Positions 3,287 through 27,520 of a DNA stretch of 64,000 bases are shown one piece after another. The notes beneath the pieces are model-generated. The model saw only the letters and a program-made list of their open reading frames with translations. It was not told the DNA's origin and searched no databases. The position numbers were made by a program, and so were the translations under genes. Source of the DNA: Acidimicrobiales bacterium. Lineage in GTDB: Bacteria; Actinomycetota; Acidimicrobiia; Acidimicrobiales; SZUA-35. How positions within the stretch are numbered: position 1 is the stretch's first letter; each line of letters starts with the position of its first letter. The stretch lies in the NCBI GenBank assembly GCA_024638815.1, contig JAHEJM010000005.1:27040-91039 (forward strand), given 5' to 3'.

Positions 3287-4009
3287 TCAGCCCGCAGCAT
3301 GTTCGGCGAACCGTTGGGCGTCGTCCACCGTTCCGGCGATGACCAGCAGGTCGCCGGAACCGATGACCGTATTGGCGGTGGCGTAGGTGAACGAGCCACC
3401 TTCCGGTTTGATGCACACCACGGTCACCCGAAATCTGTCCCGCAGATGGCTGTCGGCCAGGCGGATGCCGATCAGGCTTTCCGGCGCCTGCAGCTCGGCC
3501 AGGACGAAACCTTCGTCGAGCTCGAAGTAGTCCACCACCTCGCCACTCACCATGTGGGCCACCCGCTCCCCCATCTGCTTCTCGGGGAACACCACGCGGT
3601 GAGCGCCGACCCGCTCCAGGATTCGCCCGTGTTCGGTGGTGATGGCCTTGGCCCAGATGTTGCCGACCCCAAGGTCGGCCAGGGCGGCCGTGGTCAGGAC
3701 GCTGGCCTCGATGTCGGAGCCGATGGCGACCACCGCGGCATCGAAGTCGACCGCTCCCAGCTGGGTGAGCGCCGATGCCGAGGTGGTGTCGGCCACCCGG
3801 ACATGGGCAATGCGGTCGGCCCACTCATCGACCAGGTCCTGACTGATGTCGACAGCCATGACCGCGACCCCCAGTTTGCCCAGCTCGGCGGCGAGGGCGG
3901 TACCGAACCGGCCCAACCCGATAACGAGAACCGAGTTGGTCTCGATCGAGCCGTCGGTCCTGGCGAACGACTCGTCGGCCCACTTCCTGAACCTCTCCAG
4001 ACTGGACAT
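3287..4009 (-). CDS. trkA: Trk/Ktr potassium uptake system, NAD-binding regulatory subunit (RCK_N + RCK_C)
   Basis: It has the Rossmann motif VLVIGLGRFGTALAAEL and a C-terminal TrkA_C-like segment (GIRLADSHLRDRFRVTVVCIKPEGG). SD-like GAGGTG sits about 8 nt before the ATG. The gene is directly downstream of trkH. Confidence 0.9.
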   Translation of the reverse strand: MSSLERFRKWADESFARTDGSIETNSVLVIGLGRFGTALAAELGKLGVAVMAVDISQDLVDEWADRIAHVRVADTTSASALTQLGAVDFDAAVVAIGSDIEASVLTTAALADLGVGNIWAKAITTEHGRILERVGAHRVVFPEKQMGERVAHMVSGEVVDYFELDEGFVLAELQAPESLIGIRLADSHLRDRFRVTVVCIKPEGGSFTYATANTVIGSGDLLVIAGTVDDAQRFAEHAAG

Positions 4010-4055
4010 CGGTTGTTCACCTCAACTTGCTCATGGCCTGGACACAAGGACCGGT

Positions 4056-5393
4056 TCAGCCAACGATAAGGGCCTCTTCGGCGAACCCGTACCGCTTCGG
4101 CTGGGCTCGAAGCAGGATGGCGGTGCCGAAGGTGATGGGGCCGACCCGGCCGAGAAACATCAGCCCGATGATCACCAGTCGTGCCGGCCCGCCCAGCTCG
4201 GTGGTGAGACCGGTCGACACGCCAACCGTCCCGAAAGCCGACGCCGTCTCGAACAGCAACTCGAGAGCGGGTAGATCCGGCTCCAGATAGGCCAGGGTGA
4301 AGGCTGCGGTCCCCACTCCTCCCAGAGCGGCCACGACCAGGGACAGAGCCTGGCGTTCGACCGAACGAGGGACCCGCCGGTTGAACAGGGTGGCCTGACG
4401 GTCGCCCCGAAACTCGGCCAGTGTGGAGCGGATGACCACGGCGAAGGTGGAGGTCTTGATGCCACCACCGGTCGACGCGCTGGAAGCCCCGACCACCATG
4501 AGCAGGATGAAGACCAGCAGACTGGCCGGCCGGAGCTCACCGATGGGCACGGTGTTGAAGCCCGCGGTCCGAGCGGTGGCCGACTGGAAGAAGGCGGCCA
4601 GCATCTTGTCAGGCGGGGAAAGCGAGCCCAGTGTGGCGTCATTGCTCCACTCCACCACGGCCAACATGGCGGTTCCGAACGTCAGCAGGGTGAACGTCAT
4701 GGCCAGGGTGACCTTGGTGTGCAGCGACCAGCGTTGAGGGGATCGCCACCGTTCGTAGAGTTCGAACACGACGGGGAAGCCGATGCCGCCCACAATGAAG
4801 GCGAAGGCCACGACGAGGCTGATGAACCAGTCGTCGGCGTAGCGCTCGAGACCACCGTCGAGGATGGAGAAGCCGGCGTTGTTGAAGGCCGAGATCGAGT
4901 GGAACACACCGAGGTAGGTTCCGTGGACCAGCCCTTCGCCCTCCACCAGCACGAAACTCGCACTGAGCAGAACAGCGAAGACGATCTCGGAGATGGCCAC
5001 GAATACCACCAGCTTCTGCAGCAGGTTGCGCACGGTGCCGAGGTCGGTGAAACCGATCTCGGCACCCACTCGCATACCGGTACGGAGGCCGAGACGTCGG
5101 GTGAAGATGATGCCGAGGAAGCCGGCCAGGGTCATGATGCCCAGGCCTCCGATCTGGATCAGCACCAAAATGACGAACTCGCCGAACCGGGACCAGGTTG
5201 GTGCGGTGTCGACCACGCCCAGTCCGGTCACGGTCACGGCCGACACCGCGGTGAAGAAGGCGTCCGACCAGGAAACCGGCTGCCGGTTCTCATGGGCGAT
5301 GGACAGCGACAGCAGCTCGGTGCCGACGAGGATCAGGGCGGCGAAGCCGGCAACGACCAGAACACCGGGATGGCGAATGCGCTGCTCGGACAC
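4056..5393 (-). CDS. trkH: TrkH/KtrB family potassium transporter membrane subunit
   Basis: 445-aa polytopic protein with repeated pore-loop motifs (TVTGLGV, IQIGGLGIM, FNNAGFS, TARTAGFNT, STGGGIKT, GTVGVSTG). Start codon is GTG. Confidence 0.9.
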   Translation of the reverse strand: MSEQRIRHPGVLVVAGFAALILVGTELLSLSIAHENRQPVSWSDAFFTAVSAVTVTGLGVVDTAPTWSRFGEFVILVLIQIGGLGIMTLAGFLGIIFTRRLGLRTGMRVGAEIGFTDLGTVRNLLQKLVVFVAISEIVFAVLLSASFVLVEGEGLVHGTYLGVFHSISAFNNAGFSILDGGLERYADDWFISLVVAFAFIVGGIGFPVVFELYERWRSPQRWSLHTKVTLAMTFTLLTFGTAMLAVVEWSNDATLGSLSPPDKMLAAFFQSATARTAGFNTVPIGELRPASLLVFILLMVVGASSASTGGGIKTSTFAVVIRSTLAEFRGDRQATLFNRRVPRSVERQALSLVVAALGGVGTAAFTLAYLEPDLPALELLFETASAFGTVGVSTGLTTELGGPARLVIIGLMFLGRVGPITFGTAILLRAQPKRYGFAEEALIVG

Positions 5394-7517: not shown

Positions 7518-8596
7518 CCGGCCTCCATCCGGATACGGCGACACCACCGGCGCCGACGGTGGCCCCACCGCCATGGCCGCCGGCCGACGCCTCGGTGGTG
7601 CTCAAGGGTGTGTCCAAGTCGTTCTCAGGATTGGTCGCCGTATCCGACATCTTCCTTGCCCTGCAGCCGGGCGTCACTGCGTTGCTGGGACCGAACGGGG
7701 CGGGTAAGTCGACGCTGCTGCGGCTGATCTGCGGTCTCGCTCGACCGTCGACCGGTACGGTGTGGGTGGCCGGCGGCAACCCCCGCTTCGATGCCGATGT
7801 GCGGGCCCGGATCGGTCTCGTCCCCCAGCAGGATGGGGTGTTCGAATCATTGACGGCGCTCGAGACCGTGGAGTTGGCGGCCCGTCTCAGTCGGCTGGCC
7901 GAGCCCAGAGTCGAGGCCCGCCGGGCCTTGGCCCTGGTCGAACTCGACCCGACCATGACACGACCGGTCGGGACCTTCTCCAAGGGCATGCGGCAGCGGG
8001 TCAAAGTTGCCCAGGCCCTGGTTCACGATCCCGCCTTGTTGATCTTGGACGAGCCGCTCAACGGCCTCGATCCTCGCCAGCGGCACCACCTGATCGAGCT
8101 GTTCGCCGAGTTGGGCCACTCCGGCCGAACGGTGTTGGTTTCGAGCCATGTGTTGGAAGAGGTCGAACGGTTCGGCTCCCGGGTTGTGGTGGTGGCCAAA
8201 GGCCGACTGGTGGCTGAGGGCGACTACCGCCAGATCCGCAATCTGCTCAACCAGCAACCACACCGGATCCGCGTCGAGTGCGACCGGCCTCGGGCCATGG
8301 CCATCGGTCTCATGGCCCTTGAGCCCGTCATCAGTTGTACCGTGACGGACACGGGCGACCGCCGGCTCCCGCCCGACCGGGCCCCGGCCGGACCGTTGGC
8401 GGCACAGGCCGACTCGACGATGTCGGCTCCAGCAGTGGAGGTGACGACAAATGATGTGGCCGAGTTGCGGCGGGCCCTGCCGGTGGTGGCCAAACGCCTC
8501 GATCTGACGCTGAGCGGGGTCGTTCCCCTCGACGACGACCTCGAAAGTGTATTTCGGTATCTGGTCGGGGGGCCACCGGGGGGCGCTCAGCGATGA
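7514..8596 (+). CDS. ABC transporter ATP-binding protein (ABC-2 exporter type), module 2
   Basis: Motifs present: Walker A GPNGAGKST, signature FSKGMRQRV, Walker B LLILDEPLNGLD and H-loop SSHV. The ATG at 7514 overlaps the permease stop (ATGA). It has a Pro-rich ~35-aa leader and a ~120-aa C-terminal extension. Confidence 0.85.
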   Translation: MTGLHPDTATPPAPTVAPPPWPPADASVVLKGVSKSFSGLVAVSDIFLALQPGVTALLGPNGAGKSTLLRLICGLARPSTGTVWVAGGNPRFDADVRARIGLVPQQDGVFESLTALETVELAARLSRLAEPRVEARRALALVELDPTMTRPVGTFSKGMRQRVKVAQALVHDPALLILDEPLNGLDPRQRHHLIELFAELGHSGRTVLVSSHVLEEVERFGSRVVVVAKGRLVAEGDYRQIRNLLNQQPHRIRVECDRPRAMAIGLMALEPVISCTVTDTGDRRLPPDRAPAGPLAAQADSTMSAPAVEVTTNDVAELRRALPVVAKRLDLTLSGVVPLDDDLESVFRYLVGGPPGGAQR

Positions 8597-9300
8597 TGTT
8601 GTACCGCATGCTGCTGGGCCAGCAGCTCACCAAGGCCCGCATTCTGCTGATCACCGGCTTCTCGGTGCTGGCCATCGTGCTCGCTCTCTCCATCGGAGCC
8701 CAGGTCGATCCGGCCAACCGGATCGAATCCGTCATCGGTTTCCTCTCGGTCTACGGGCTGGGCTTCATGGTGCCCATCCTGTGCCTGCTGCTGGCCTCGT
8801 CCACGTTGGGGCAGCTGGTCGAGGACGAGACGCTGGTGTATCTCTGGCTGCGGCCCAATCCCCGATGGCAGCTGGCGTTGGCGTCGTGGGCCGCGGCGGC
8901 AACGATCGCGCTCCCGACCACGGTTCTCCCGCTGACCGCAGCGGCCGCCATCGGCACCGGCAGCCAGGCCGAAGCGGTGGGCGCCACCGCCCTGTCCATG
9001 GCCCTCGCCGCCGTGGGCTATACCGGCCTCTTCACCCTGATCGGCCTCGTGCTGCGCCGAGCCCTGCTGTGGGGCCTGGTCTACATCTTCATCTGGGAGC
9101 TGTTCGTGGCCCGGGCCGGCGCCGGGGCGGCCCGACTGTCGCTCAACACCTACCCTCATTCAGTGCTGGCCCGGTTGACCGACATCGAGTTGCCTCTGGC
9201 CGAACGGTCGATGACGGCGGCCTTGATCGTTCCGCCGGCGGTGGCCGCAGTGTCGGTGGCGCTCACCGCCTGGTGGCTGGACCGCACCGAGGTGGCGTAG
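8593..9300 (+). CDS. ABC-2 type transporter permease, module 2
   Basis: 235 aa with about six hydrophobic segments. Its ATG overlaps the ATPase stop (ATGA). Confidence 0.7.
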   Translation: MMLYRMLLGQQLTKARILLITGFSVLAIVLALSIGAQVDPANRIESVIGFLSVYGLGFMVPILCLLLASSTLGQLVEDETLVYLWLRPNPRWQLALASWAAAATIALPTTVLPLTAAAAIGTGSQAEAVGATALSMALAAVGYTGLFTLIGLVLRRALLWGLVYIFIWELFVARAGAGAARLSLNTYPHSVLARLTDIELPLAERSMTAALIVPPAVAAVSVALTAWWLDRTEVA

Positions 9301-9318
9301 GCAGGTACTCGCAGGGGG

Positions 9319-9996
9319 CTACGATCCGGTGCCGCCGGAGCCCCTTGACGACGCGTCGACCACGGCGTCGATGATTCCCAGCGCCATCGCTTCGCCCGAG
9401 TTGTGCCAACCTCCGGCTTCGAGTTCCCGGGCCAGGAACGTCTCGTCCTGACCCGTGGCCGCAGCCAGGGAGTTCAGATACTGCCTCCGGATCTCCGCCA
9501 GTTCCTCGGCCTGACGGACGATGTCGCTGGTCGTGCCCTCGATCCGCTGTTCTTGATCGCTTCGCAGTGAGAAGCGAGCGTGGGGAGCAGCCCGACGATG
9601 CCCGGTGCCGGCCGCAACCAGTGCCACGGCGGTGCCGGACGCGTTACCGATACACGTGACGTTGACCCGGGCCCGCATCAGATCGAGAACATCGAGCACG
9701 GCCAGGATGTCGCTCTGTCGGCCGCCGATACTGTTGACCACAAGCTCCACGTCCCGACTCGACAACCCGTCGAGAGCCATCAACTCGGCCGTCAATCGAG
9801 TCACAGTGTGGTGGTCGAGCGGTCCGCTGACGAGTATCCGACGCTGTTCGGCCAGCTGCTCCCGCACCGCGCCGGCCGCTGCATCGACCGTGGGAACGAC
9901 GACCGGTACAACCGGCGGGGTTCGCCCCGGCGGTTCCCGTGGCGGGAACAGCGGGGGAATCTCCGGGTAGTCGGGGGGTTGTCCAGGCACGTCCAT
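9319..9996 (-). CDS. ClpP-fold (peptidase S14-like) protein, predicted catalytically inactive
   Basis: It aligns by eye to ClpP over RILVSGPLD...VNSIGG...VTCIGNASGTAVALVAAGTGHRR...GIIDAVV. Gly/Ser-shifted, Arg and Gly occupy the Ser-His-Asp positions. The N-terminus is Pro-rich. The ATG immediately follows the XRE gene's TGA, with AAGGAG just upstream. Confidence 0.65.
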   Translation of the reverse strand: MDVPGQPPDYPEIPPLFPPREPPGRTPPVVPVVVPTVDAAAGAVREQLAEQRRILVSGPLDHHTVTRLTAELMALDGLSSRDVELVVNSIGGRQSDILAVLDVLDLMRARVNVTCIGNASGTAVALVAAGTGHRRAAPHARFSLRSDQEQRIEGTTSDIVRQAEELAEIRRQYLNSLAAATGQDETFLARELEAGGWHNSGEAMALGIIDAVVDASSRGSGGTGS

Positions 9997-10266
9997 TCAC
10001 TCCTTGGCGCGGTGACGAACGGCGAAACCGATGTCGGCGTCGATGGCTGCGGCATAGCGGGCCAAGGTCGAGAGCCGAACGTCGGTCCGACCCGATTCGA
10101 GGCGGGCCAACGCCGACTGCGACGTGCCCATACGAGCCGCCACCTCGGTCTGGGAAAGCCCGCGCGCCGCCCGTGCCGCCGTGAGCGCGGCGATGACGTC
10201 GGCGGTATTGCCGGTCATCGACTCGAAGCCGGGGAACACCGATCGTTCGTCGTTCTCGTCGGCCAT
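9997..10266 (-). CDS. XRE-family helix-turn-helix transcriptional regulator (antitoxin-like), 89 aa
   Basis: The HTH reads RGLSQTEVAARMGTSQSALARLESGRTDVRLSTLARYAAAIDADI. I chose the ATG at 10266 (MADENDER). The track ORF's upstream 27 codons run into an AT-rich operator-like region. Confidence 0.8.
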   Translation of the reverse strand: MADENDERSVFPGFESMTGNTADVIAALTAARAARGLSQTEVAARMGTSQSALARLESGRTDVRLSTLARYAAAIDADIGFAVRHRAKE

Positions 10267-10294
10267 ATCGACGACAATATCGCATATTCGATAT
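10265..10294. promoter_or_regulatory. candidate operator/promoter of the XRE gene
   Basis: There are three hexamer half-sites with 12-nt spacing: ATATCG (10265-10270, overlapping the start codon), ATATCG (10277-10282) and CGATAT (10289-10294). This patch is AT-rich in a GC-rich genome. On the minus strand, TATTGT lies about 7 nt before the ATG and no SD is present, which is consistent with a leaderless mRNA. Confidence 0.4.
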
Positions 10295-10395
10295 AACCCA
10301 ACACCGGTCCGTCCTGCTTGTAGTATTCGGCGATCACGGCGTGGCAACGGCCCGGTACCGAGGAGAGCGAGAGGACTGACGGCCGTCAGGGGGCT

Positions 10396-11244
10396 TCACG
10401 CCTTGATTCCGCTCGTAGCAAAGACTCGATGGGCAACGACAAGCTCGCCCGGAAACTCTCGAGCCAGCAGGTCGGCGAGCTCGGTGTCGAAGCGTTCGAC
10501 GTGCTCGACACCCAGGGCCGCCCCGACCCCGTTGCACGTCCGGATACGACCGCGCCAGCTCTCGTGACTGAAGGGGACATCGGCTACATAGCTGAAGCTC
10601 TCAACCTCCCGGAAACCCGACTCATCGAGAGCCCGCACCTGTTCGGGGTGTATGCCGCGCCAGCCTGCCTTGGTCCAACCGGGGTTGTGCTTCAGAATCA
10701 GCTCCTCGGTACGATCGGCCACATTGCCGACCATTGCGACGTAGCTGAAGTTGCAGATGAGCAAGCGCCCGCCGTTGACAAGAATGCGAATCGCTTCTCG
10801 TGTGGCAGCCTCGGCATCGAACCACCACCAGCATTGACCGGCGCTCACAAGGTCGAAACCGGCGTCATCCTGGCCCGTGGCCTCGGCCCGACCCTCAACG
10901 AAGCGCGCCGGCAGCCCGCGCTCGACAGCAACCCGGGTTGCGACCTCGAGAAGCTCGGGGGAGATATCAAGCCCCGTCGCCTCGAGCCCACGAGCAGCGA
11001 AGCCCAAAGCGAGCGATCCGGTACCCGTGCCGAGATCGAGAACGCGTTGCCCGGCGACAATCCACCCGATGGACAGCAGCCGGTCAAGAAAGCTGTCCGG
11101 GAACCCCGGGCGGTAACGCTCATAGTCGAAAACAGCGCGACCAAAATCGATCTCCCGACCCTCGTGGTCCCTCGGTGCCGTGCCTTCGCCTATCGGTACA
11201 GGCTATACCGCCGAGGAGCCGACGGCAGGGCGTACAACGCCCAT
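10396..11244 (-). pseudogene. class I SAM-dependent methyltransferase interrupted by an in-frame TAG at codon 14 (or using a non-canonical start)
   Basis: SAM motif I VLDLGTGTGS and the typical FDYERYRPGFP region lie upstream of the first canonical start (TTG 11007). An in-frame ATG at 11244, 3 nt after the upstream gene's stop, is followed by TAG at 11203-11205. No ATG, GTG or TTG occurs in the 65 codons between them. Confidence 0.55.
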
Positions 11245-26068: not shown

Positions 26069-27520
26069 CTACCGGTCGGCGCCTACCGCAGACCAGGTGG
26101 CAAGCACGGCGTCCACGGCCCGATCGGCGTCGTCGAGGGTGGTGGCAACGTCACTGACGCTGATCCTCATGGCCCGCCGAGCGCGCCATGTCGTGGTTCC
26201 GAACCACGCCTCGCCACCCCCCTGGACCCCGGCGATCACGGCATCGGTCACCGAGTCGTCACCGAAGGCCACGAGGGCCTGGTTGAGCACGACCGGGGCC
26301 AGCAGCTCGGCCCCGCCTTCCGCCAGCCGCCGGGCCATATGGTGGGCCAGCCAACAGCAACGATCGACCAGAGCGGCCATGCCGTCGCGACCGAGCGTGG
26401 CGAAGGTGGCCAACAGGGGAACAGAGCGAGCCCGTTGCGACATCTGGGGACCCAGTTGCATGGGTTCCCGGCGGACGGCTGATCCGCCGGCCTCGCCGAC
26501 GCCGGGGATCCGGGCGTAGGCGGCATCGATTGCCATGGTGGACTCCAGCGGAGCGGGGTCGGCCACGATCAAGACCCCACAGTCGTAGGGGCTGTTGGGC
26601 CACTTGTGCCCGTCGGTGGCCCACGAATCGGCCCGATCGACCCCGACCACCTGATCCCGATACCGGGGCGAGACCGCGGCCCAGAGACCAAAGGCCCCAT
26701 CGACATGGATCCATGACCGATCCCGCAGACCCCGGGTCCGCAACACCTTGTCGATCTGGCCCACCGGGTCGCTGTGACCGGTGTTGACGTTTCCGCATTG
26801 GGCGATCACGAGAACCGGAGGCTGGATATGGGGAAGGCGGGCCGGATCGATCGCCCCGGCCCCGTCCACCGGGGCCCTGACGATCCGATCGGTCCCCAGC
26901 CCGGCCAGTCGCACCGCCTTGTCCACCGAGAGGTGGGCTTCAGCCGAGGTGACGACGGTTATCGGTGGCGCCCCCATCAGGCCGCTGCGGTCCACATCCC
27001 AGCCGTCGAGTCGAAGGAGATGATCTCGGGCGACGGTCACGGCATTCCAATTGGCCACGCTGGCCCCGCTGCACAACACGGCCGTCGCCCCGGCCGGCAG
27101 GCCGAGCAGCTCGACCAGCCACCGAGCCACCTGGGCATCGATACGGTGGGCCAGAGGCGACATCGTCGACATGGCGGCGTTCTGGTCCCAAGCCTGGGCC
27201 AGAACGGAGGCGGCCAATGCCGCCGGCTCCGTCCCACCGGTCACGAACCCGAAGTATCGCCCTCCGGTGGAACGGACCGCGGTGCGACGTCCGAGATCGG
27301 CCAGCAGGTCGAGCAGCTCCGATGGGGACATGGGCCGGTCGAGCGACAGATCGTCCAATCGTGCCAGCTCCTCGTGGAGTTCGGCGCCGGGATGCACCGG
27401 TGACGAACGCTCGATGGCCAGGTAGTCGGCCGCATGGTTGGCCGCCTGGCCGAACAGAGCAACCTTCTTCTCCGCGGAGGCCGTGGAGGACGCCTCCTGC
27501 GATGAGAAGGCCTTCTCCAA
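26069..27520 (-). CDS. pyridoxal-dependent (group II) amino-acid decarboxylase family
   Basis: 483 aa with SGASVANWNAVTVAR, HVDGAFGLWAAV and the PLP-lysine motif SWATDGHKW. Start codon is TTG. Confidence 0.8.
   Translation of the reverse strand: MEKAFSSQEASSTASAEKKVALFGQAANHAADYLAIERSSPVHPGAELHEELARLDDLSLDRPMSPSELLDLLADLGRRTAVRSTGGRYFGFVTGGTEPAALAASVLAQAWDQNAAMSTMSPLAHRIDAQVARWLVELLGLPAGATAVLCSGASVANWNAVTVARDHLLRLDGWDVDRSGLMGAPPITVVTSAEAHLSVDKAVRLAGLGTDRIVRAPVDGAGAIDPARLPHIQPPVLVIAQCGNVNTGHSDPVGQIDKVLRTRGLRDRSWIHVDGAFGLWAAVSPRYRDQVVGVDRADSWATDGHKWPNSPYDCGVLIVADPAPLESTMAIDAAYARIPGVGEAGGSAVRREPMQLGPQMSQRARSVPLLATFATLGRDGMAALVDRCCWLAHHMARRLAEGGAELLAPVVLNQALVAFGDDSVTDAVIAGVQGGGEAWFGTTTWRARRAMRISVSDVATTLDDADRAVDAVLATWSAVGADR

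Follow-up and report, generated by a model that had tools for sequence, protein, structure and literature searches.

The 64,000 nt segment analyzed here (the window) is from an Acidimicrobiales bacterium, GenBank assembly GCA_024638815.1, and corresponds to positions 27,040–91,039 of the forward strand of contig JAHEJM010000005.1. Two adjacent genes are found on its minus strand, a small gene of the XRE family of helix-turn-helix (HTH) regulators and an open reading frame whose predicted product has the ClpP fold and lacks the Ser-His-Asp triad of ClpP. All coordinates are positions in the window. The stop codon of the XRE gene and the start codon of the ClpP-like gene abut with no bases between them (TGA-ATG). 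The gene pair consists of the following.

9997–10266, minus strand: XRE-family HTH gene, 89 aa, stop codon included in the coordinates; ATG at 10266, stop TGA at 9999–9997; HTH_3 and HTH_31 domains.
10000–10005, minus strand: AAGGAG, Shine-Dalgarno sequence for the ClpP-like gene, situated inside the 3′ end of the XRE coding region.
9319–9996, minus strand: ClpP-fold pseudo-protease gene, 225 aa, stop codon included; ATG at 9996–9994, TAG at 9321–9319; CLP_protease domain.

The open reading frame coordinates agree with the layout given in a preliminary description, which was made from the sequence alone and reported the 89 aa XRE gene, the TGA-ATG junction, the 225 aa protein and the AAGGAG. 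Neither a canonical clpP nor a second copy of either gene is found in the window.

The sole Pfam match of the ClpP-like protein is CLP_protease (PF00574; 1.7e-30), which covers the 172 residues from position 43 to 214. VNSIGG, CIGNASGTAVALVAAG and GIIDAVV all occur in its sequence. Scores with the NCBIfam ClpP models are far below the curated cut-offs, the best being 111 bits for NF009205 (cut-off 228), and TIGR00493 giving 72 bits (cut-off 308.6). The positions of the triad were determined from phmmer alignments to solved ClpP structures and from a MAFFT alignment of E. coli ClpP with 76 relatives of the ClpP-like protein (the set obtained at 90% clustering). The two methods agree and place the triad as follows.

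9634–9636, minus strand: Gly121 codon, position of the catalytic Ser; Gly in 76/76 relatives, followed by Thr in 73/76 and then Ala in 75/76.
9562–9564, minus strand: Arg145 codon, position of the catalytic His; Arg in 69/76 relatives, in an SLRxD motif (SLRSD in the window).
9412–9414, minus strand: Gly195 codon, position of the catalytic Asp; Gly in 72/76 relatives (EAGGWH in the window).

The preliminary description had aligned the protein to the ClpP core and reported a Gly for the Ser, with a Ser one residue earlier, and replacement of the His and Asp. Both the phmmer and MAFFT alignments reproduce these assignments. Profile and structure-based alignment also shows that Ser, His and Asp are all lost, and an active ClpP paralog, which that description had named as the contrary outcome, was not what was found. 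Ser120 was considered as a shifted nucleophile and rejected, as the residue preceding Gly121 is Ser in only 24 of the 76 relatives. With the Ser/His/Asp residues swapped for conserved Gly/Arg/Gly, the protein cannot work as a Ser-His-Asp protease.

The ClpP fold itself is complete in the predicted structure. An AlphaFold2 model of the ClpP-like protein, based on an alignment of 30 relatives, has a mean predicted local distance difference test score (pLDDT) of 88.5, and its top Foldseek matches are chains of Mycobacterium tuberculosis ClpP2, with root-mean-square deviations of 1.3–1.9 Å over approximately 172–181 aligned columns and about 31% identity. The oxyanion-loop Gly (Gly92) is found in 76/76 relatives and the handle Gly in 71/76, and the long handle helix is retained. 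The conservation of these glycines suggests that the ClpP scaffold is under selection.

An exhaustive HMMER search (E ≤ 1e-30, 50% clustering) yielded 274 representatives of the ClpP-like family. Among the best 150 of these, the Ser is replaced by Gly in approximately 135; the most common combination is Gly/Arg/Gly (60 sequences), and only 6 have Ser/His/Asp. In the same 150 sequences the Asp position is mostly Gly, and the His position is highly variable (R in 60, then S, T, C, A and V). As so many members carry Gly at the Ser position, the triad-less ClpP paralogs appear to represent a sizeable non-catalytic family and not a one-off pseudogene. Where a source is named for relatives of the ClpP-like protein, it is Ilumatobacteraceae, Acidimicrobiales, Acidimicrobiia or Actinomycetota. 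Two family members show tandem ClpP domains: P0215 (470 aa) consists of a triad-less domain and a domain with Ser/His/Asp, and in P0217 (363 aa) neither domain has the Ser. These could be real fusions that hint at an association of dead with active ClpP, or they could be merged gene calls.

Conservation of the replacements bears on two other explanations. The protein may still be an enzyme, with the ClpP/crotonase oxyanion hole and the conserved Thr122, Arg145, Asp147 and Glu84 used for a different chemistry; chemistries other than proteolysis, as well as Ser-Lys peptidases, are known in the wider ClpP/crotonase superfamily. That Gly92 is invariant and that the triad replacements are conserved and not drifting are consistent with this. 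However, there is no conserved Ser, Lys or Cys nucleophile near the site, and the variability of the His position in the wider family is more in keeping with a structural than with a catalytic role; an enzymatic function is thus considered very improbable. The second explanation is that the gene is a leftover or artefact, i.e. a decaying clpP pseudogene or the remnant of a phage ClpP-like head-maturation protease that happens to lie beside an unrelated regulator. There are weak matches to phage head-maturation proteases (NCBIfam 7.7e-10; PHROGs 4e-12), but the match to cellular ClpP models is far stronger (1.7e-30), the reading frame is intact, and at least 76 clusters keep the same substitutions. 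A phage prohead protease or prophage remnant was rejected on the weaker phage-model matches, on the neighboring genes, which are metabolic and transport genes with no phage genes nearby, and on zero matches in the viral contigs of IMG/VR. The family-wide conservation of the substitutions contradicts a leftover of either kind, and its probability is close to negligible.

The pairing of the two genes is found in related genomes. A genome scan gave 2 loci and a metagenome scan 6, and most neighborhoods were reached through exact-protein look-ups. Of 14 distinct loci outside the window, 12 have an XRE ortholog as the gene immediately preceding the ClpP-like gene, and the flanking genes differ each time; in the gene tables of long contigs the preceding gene is annotated as HTH_3/HTH_31. 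A tblastn search of the fetched loci with both window proteins shows, in these 12 loci, identities of 61–71% for the XRE orthologs and 41–60% for the ClpP-like genes; over all related loci, the XRE orthologs located upstream of ClpP-like genes are 57–71% identical. The junction is tight in 12 of 13 locus pairs, where the stop and start codons share 4 nt (ATGA/TTGA) or 1 nt or are separated by no more than 3 nt; the exception is L013, where the XRE frame reads through. A GGAG/GAGG-type motif is present 5–15 nt before the start of the ClpP-like gene in most related loci. Viewed from the XRE side, all three chosen contigs carry a CLP_protease gene that overlaps the XRE gene or lies 3 nt downstream. 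Thus the check suggested in the preliminary description, conservation of the pair in related genomes, gave a conserved pair from both sides (12/14 and 3/3). Pairwise identities of the XRE and ClpP-like proteins co-vary (r = 0.68), with the XRE protein being the more conserved of the two (mean pairwise identity 64% vs 52%).

There are also loci where the pair is incomplete. L020 keeps the XRE gene and has the ClpP-like gene reduced to its C-terminal half, and L022 shows a solo XRE gene. L002 (positions 3657–4207), from a metagenome-assembled genome (MAG) of an uncultured Acidimicrobiales bacterium, is syntenic to window positions 9319–10400 and shares the methyltransferase and ABC permease genes on its flanks. 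In L002 the operator (described below) and the ATG remain, the XRE gene is mostly deleted, and a 70 aa ClpP-like fragment joins residues ~93–112 to residues 178–225. Decay in a syntenic close relative shows that the module is dispensable, and the XRE/ClpP-like module is thus optional.

Other arrangements were seen around the pair. Three loci carry a further gene that overlaps the stop codon of the ClpP-like gene by 4 nt (L015, 4573–5634; L019, 3911–4948; L018, 3340–4056), so that the operon can exceed two genes; this third gene belongs to the NAD-dependent epimerase family in two of the loci and has a metallo-beta-lactamase fold in the other. In L006, a canonical clpP (209 aa, 4001–4630, minus strand, Ser/His/Asp intact) is divergent from the XRE/dead-ClpP pair. 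The intergenic region of approximately 100 bp (4631–4734) is shared by clpP and the pair and holds the palindrome TATCT-N8-AGATA. L021 carries at 927–1991, two genes upstream of the XRE gene, a 354 aa protein with matches to Clp_N and weak matches to the ClpX zinc finger, which may be a coincidence. No members of the XRE/ClpP-like family were found in plasmid, phage and IMG/VR collections.

The region upstream of the XRE gene displays the following sequence elements.

10277–10294, palindromic, no strand assigned: perfect inverted repeat ATATCG-N6-CGATAT (equivalent to ATATC-N8-GATAT), putative operator of the XRE protein, with no second copy in the 64-kb window.
10265–10270, minus strand: third half-site, CGATAT, the last two bases of which are the AT of the XRE ATG.
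10274–10279, minus strand: TATTGT, a −10-like TANNNT hexamer at −13 to −8 from the A of the ATG, overlapping the right operator arm.

The half-sites (10289–10294, 10277–10282 and 10265–10270) are 12 nt apart. CGATAT occurs 7 times in the 64-kb window when both strands are counted, and 3 of these copies are within this 30-bp stretch. The XRE ATG has no purine-rich Shine-Dalgarno sequence upstream of it, and a sigma-70 consensus scan did not find a full promoter. These features are as the preliminary description had them, with three half-sites at 12-nt spacing, one half-site over the start codon and an absent Shine-Dalgarno sequence.

The promoters of 17 loci were aligned gap-free on the XRE start codon. 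A 5-N8-5 palindrome, perfect or one base off, is present at −28/−29 from the XRE start in 9 of the 17 loci, and it is found further upstream in two more (L006 and L019). The TANNNT hexamer is at the exact −13 to −8 register in 14 of the 17 loci, or in 15 if a one-base shift is allowed, and (C/T)GATATG spans the XRE start codon in about half of them. The perfect palindrome is found no more than once per fetched locus and always at the XRE promoter. Further operator copies, which would indicate a wider regulon, are present neither in the window nor in the fetched loci.

In mycobacteria, a −10 hexamer approximately 7 nt before a leader-free ATG or GTG is a signature of leaderless transcripts. As the register of the hexamer is conserved and a Shine-Dalgarno sequence is absent, the XRE messenger RNA is likely leaderless. 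Since the operator covers the −10 hexamer as well as the start codon, its position implies that the XRE protein represses its own synthesis. Autoregulation and a possibly leaderless mRNA had both been proposed in the preliminary description, and they gain comparative support from the recurrence of the operator and of the TANNNT hexamer (14/17 loci); binding of the protein to the operator stays inferred.

The XRE protein matches the Pfam families HTH_3 (6e-13) and HTH_31 (4e-11). Its HTH domain is predicted with confidence at residues 21–74, and the mean pLDDT of the AlphaFold2 model is 81. Among solved structures it is closest to HigA antitoxins, the 434 repressor and HipB; in the HigA match, the HTH sits behind an N-terminal extension of approximately 30 residues. 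HigA holds its toxin via its N-terminal extension. The N-terminal tail of the XRE protein contains a short motif.

10225–10236, minus strand: codons of the FPGF motif, XRE residues 11–14; part of the N-terminal tail and an invariant short linear motif, approximately 10 residues before the HTH.

FPGF is invariant in 13/13 XRE sequences derived from loci and in all 45 rows of a diverse alignment, and it is found in 117 of the 120 best database homologs. Residues 1–20 show low pLDDT and no secondary structure in the AlphaFold model. An invariant motif in a tail predicted to be disordered looks like a docking motif. P0171 is an XRE homolog without FPGF, in which the N-terminal segment is gone while the operator and the leaderless layout are kept; downstream of it is an FAD oxidoreductase gene, and there is no ClpP-like neighbor.

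The gene order and the form of the XRE protein resemble those of the HigA, HipB and MqsA antitoxins. As in those systems, there is an HTH protein of approximately 90 aa with an N-terminal extension, encoded by the first of two overlapping genes and having a palindrome in its promoter, and as in HigA-type antitoxins a proposed partner-binding N-terminus is followed by the HTH. The pair may thus be a type II toxin-antitoxin system, where the dead ClpP is a toxin, e.g. a dominant-negative Clp subunit, and the XRE protein is both antitoxin and operon repressor. The varying flanking genes would fit, as would the decay of the module, which is typical of toxin-antitoxin systems (a truncated partner in L020, a solo XRE in L022, both genes degraded in L002). 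Unlike in the HigA, HipB and MqsA systems, however, the partner cannot be assigned to a known toxin family, and no activity is predicted for it. A PADLOC search gave no match of the ClpP-like protein to toxin or defense models, and only generic HTH matches (capH, RmrA HTH) for the XRE protein. An orphan partner also exists; in L005 the ClpP-like gene is intact and has a ribosome-binding site of its own, and no XRE gene is nearby. Antitoxins usually diverge faster than toxins, but here the XRE protein is more conserved than the supposed toxin (64% vs 52%). A link to mobile elements was not found in the plasmid, phage and IMG/VR collections, and the pair is single copy in the window. A toxin-antitoxin system is therefore judged unlikely.

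The surfaces of the ClpP-like protein that correspond to contact sites in ClpP are changed. The residues that form the docking pocket for Clp ATPases and for acyldepsipeptides (ADEP) are, in E. coli ClpP numbering, Y60, Y62, F49, F112 and L114. In the ClpP-like family, Y60 is replaced by E (66/76), Y62 by V, L or I, F49 by A, F112 by R (62/76) and L114 by A. These replacements are conserved, non-aromatic and partly charged. The turn of the N-terminal axial hairpin is 6 residues shorter than that of E. coli ClpP and is preceded by an added segment.

9886–9996, minus strand: Pro-rich N-terminal extension of the ClpP-like protein, residues 1–37, pLDDT 56–77; precedes the shortened axial segment.

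The extension is found in most members and has the consensus PE(I/F)PxPFPPxRxPP...PVxVPxVD, and a P[ED]xPxP..P motif is found in 41 of the 76 relatives; the shortest members (183–191 aa) do not have the extension. Short repeats such as PEHPEHPEIPYPFPP are seen in the extension in the window, in P0033 and in L011, L001 and L009, and their copy number varies among relatives.

The protein described here shows similarities to ClpR, an inactive paralog of ClpP found in cyanobacteria, plastids and apicoplasts, which has the ClpP fold with Ser-His-Asp lost and is kept under selection as a non-catalytic protein (PMC7966870). Unlike ClpR, the ClpP-like protein has its own conserved Gly/Arg/Gly replacements, and its partner gene is an XRE regulator and not clpP. 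It also differs in the remodelled ATPase pocket and N-terminal hairpin, in the added Pro-rich extension and in being part of a module that is dispensable in L002. As the named sources are all Acidimicrobiia or Actinomycetota and the best structural matches are to actinobacterial ClpP2, the sequences suggest a loss of the triad independent of the ClpR of cyanobacteria and plastids.

A further protein for comparison is ClpP-ADEP of the ADEP producer Streptomyces hawaiiensis, which displaces ClpP1 and disrupts ClpP1P2 assembly (PMC12607617). Both are accessory actinobacterial ClpP paralogs, and ClpP-ADEP alters the make-up of the Clp core by binding and does more than supply extra protease capacity. 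However, ClpP-ADEP is proteolytic with ClpP2 and is located near an antibiotic gene cluster, whereas the ClpP-like protein is triad-less and is located beside a repressor.

With these two examples, the dead ClpP may be a ClpR-like subunit that joins mixed rings with ClpP1/ClpP2 and alters their activity or choice of partner, the XRE protein being only a local transcription factor which does not contact it. The fold is nearest to actinobacterial ClpP2, with core and handle kept. Assembly of inactive ClpP paralogs with active ones is known (PMC7966870), as is interference of an accessory actinobacterial ClpP with ClpP1P2 assembly (PMC12607617). The canonical clpP of L006, divergent from the same operator-bearing intergenic region, and the P0215 tandem of one dead and one active ClpP domain also fit. 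But a ClpR-like subunit would leave the invariant, partner-linked FPGF tail without a role, and the ATPase-docking pocket and axial hairpin are remodelled. A canonical clpP is adjacent in one locus only and none is present in the window, and the decay in L002 shows a dispensable module, which ClpR in its host systems is not. This explanation is possible but doubtful.

XRE-type regulators connected with clpP genes are known from Actinobacteria. Streptomyces and other Actinobacteria use ClgR and PopR as activators of clpP1P2 and clpP3P4 (PMC9765437, PMC9775585), with operators GTTCGC-N5-GCG for ClgR and TCTGCC-N3-GGC repeats for PopR (PMC9775585). The XRE protein is similar to these in being a small XRE-family HTH regulator tied to a ClpP-family gene in an actinobacterium. 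It differs in its A/T-rich operator, ATATC-N8-GATAT, whose position over the −10 hexamer and start codon points to repression and not to activation, in its FPGF tail, in the dead ClpP as the regulated gene and in the absence of an Ala-Ala degron (for ClpXP1P2). Membership in the ClgR/PopR group was rejected on the operator and the degron; none of the 120 XRE homologs has a C-terminal Ala-Ala, and their C-termini are variable and charged. Among the sources that name XRE homologs, none uses ClgR.

The reading preferred here, a tentative one with a probability of roughly 0.45, is that the pair is a self-contained and self-repressing two-gene module formed by the XRE regulator and a non-catalytic ClpP-like binding protein. 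A dimer of the XRE protein would bind ATATC-N8-GATAT, as the conserved sequence suggests, and cover the −10 hexamer, the third half-site reaching the start codon. Because the operator overlaps both the −10 and the start codon, binding would shut off both genes of the operon. The ClpP-like gene would be translated by coupling together with its own AAGGAG, as is again indicated by sequence conservation. Less firmly, the XRE and ClpP-like proteins may bind each other, with the FPGF tail docking on the ClpP-like protein. The ClpP-like protein would then act by binding and not by cutting, probably as a ring-shaped scaffold that tunes the repression and is itself held by the XRE protein. By analogy, the housekeeping Clp machinery is a natural guess for the most plausible outside target, because of the fold, the examples of ClpR and ClpP-ADEP, and the divergent canonical clpP in L006.

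A more far-reaching reading is a new kind of regulator-effector or toxin-antitoxin-like system that works by protease mimicry. The FPGF tail of the repressor would copy the IGF/LGF loop of Clp ATPases and hold a dead ClpP ring, and release would link the state of the Clp machinery, or a ligand of the ClpP pocket, to gene expression or to Clp poisoning. A mimic of this loop should dock in the hydrophobic pocket. This reading is held to be quite unlikely.

Several points speak against the preferred reading or parts of it. L005, the orphan in which the intact ClpP-like gene has its own AAGGAG and neither XRE gene nor operator, implies that the ClpP-like protein does not strictly need the XRE protein. 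Loss of FPGF together with loss of the partner is seen in one lineage (P0171), and L020 retains FPGF despite its truncated ClpP-like gene. The remodelled pocket and hairpin argue against ordinary Clp ATPase docking, and the pocket that an IGF/LGF-mimicking FPGF would use has lost its aromatics, through the replacements at Y60, Y62, F49 and F112 given above.

The locus is 99% identical in the public MAG GCA_947258395.1, which shares its neighbors with the window; they are a sarcosine-oxidase-like cluster, a Cys_Met_Meta_PP (Cys/Met-metabolism) enzyme and an ABC transporter. A convergent ABC-2 permease-like gene (8593–9300, plus strand) ends 18 bp from the end of the ClpP-like gene, and no terminator-like hairpin was found between the two (9300–9319). 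A 238 aa open reading frame at 9580–10296 (plus strand) runs antisense across both genes and has no family support; as both minus-strand genes have family matches, it is taken as a by-product of high G+C content. A 116 aa form of the XRE protein starting from a TTG at 10347 was dismissed because conservation starts at the ATG, the upstream "codons" being the operator. An Rfam scan of 9000–10700 gave zero matches.

The preliminary description likened the pair to a toxin-antitoxin or adaptor module and considered a ClpR-like modulator of the Clp machinery; the evidence on these functional labels is mixed, and that interpretation is supported in part. The description knew of no described system with this composition, and full-text literature searches likewise turned up no paper on a pair of an XRE gene and a dead ClpP-like gene. 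The finding is a dead ClpP paralog and an XRE autoregulator in an operon similar to those of toxin-antitoxin systems, a variation on kinds that are already known. Most work on inactive ClpP paralogs to date concerns ClpR, a fixed part of the protease core. The present analysis adds a large family of dead ClpPs that apparently evolved independently in uncultured Acidimicrobiia and comprises at least 76 clusters (90% clustering) and 274 representatives (E ≤ 1e-30). These dead ClpPs are optional and are tied to their own putative repressor, which carries an invariant motif resembling a docking motif.

The promoter represents a clean and conserved example of a probable leaderless start that is overlapped by a putative operator, and may be used to analyze leaderless regulation in a poorly known class. 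In those Actinobacteria in which this has been tested (Streptomyces), the Clp protease is essential, and the Clp system is an antibiotic target (PMC12607617). If the two proteins do bind each other, the pair would show clearly how the scaffold of a protease can be put to new use in a regulatory protein that acts by binding, and it could show a new way to sense or alter the Clp system.

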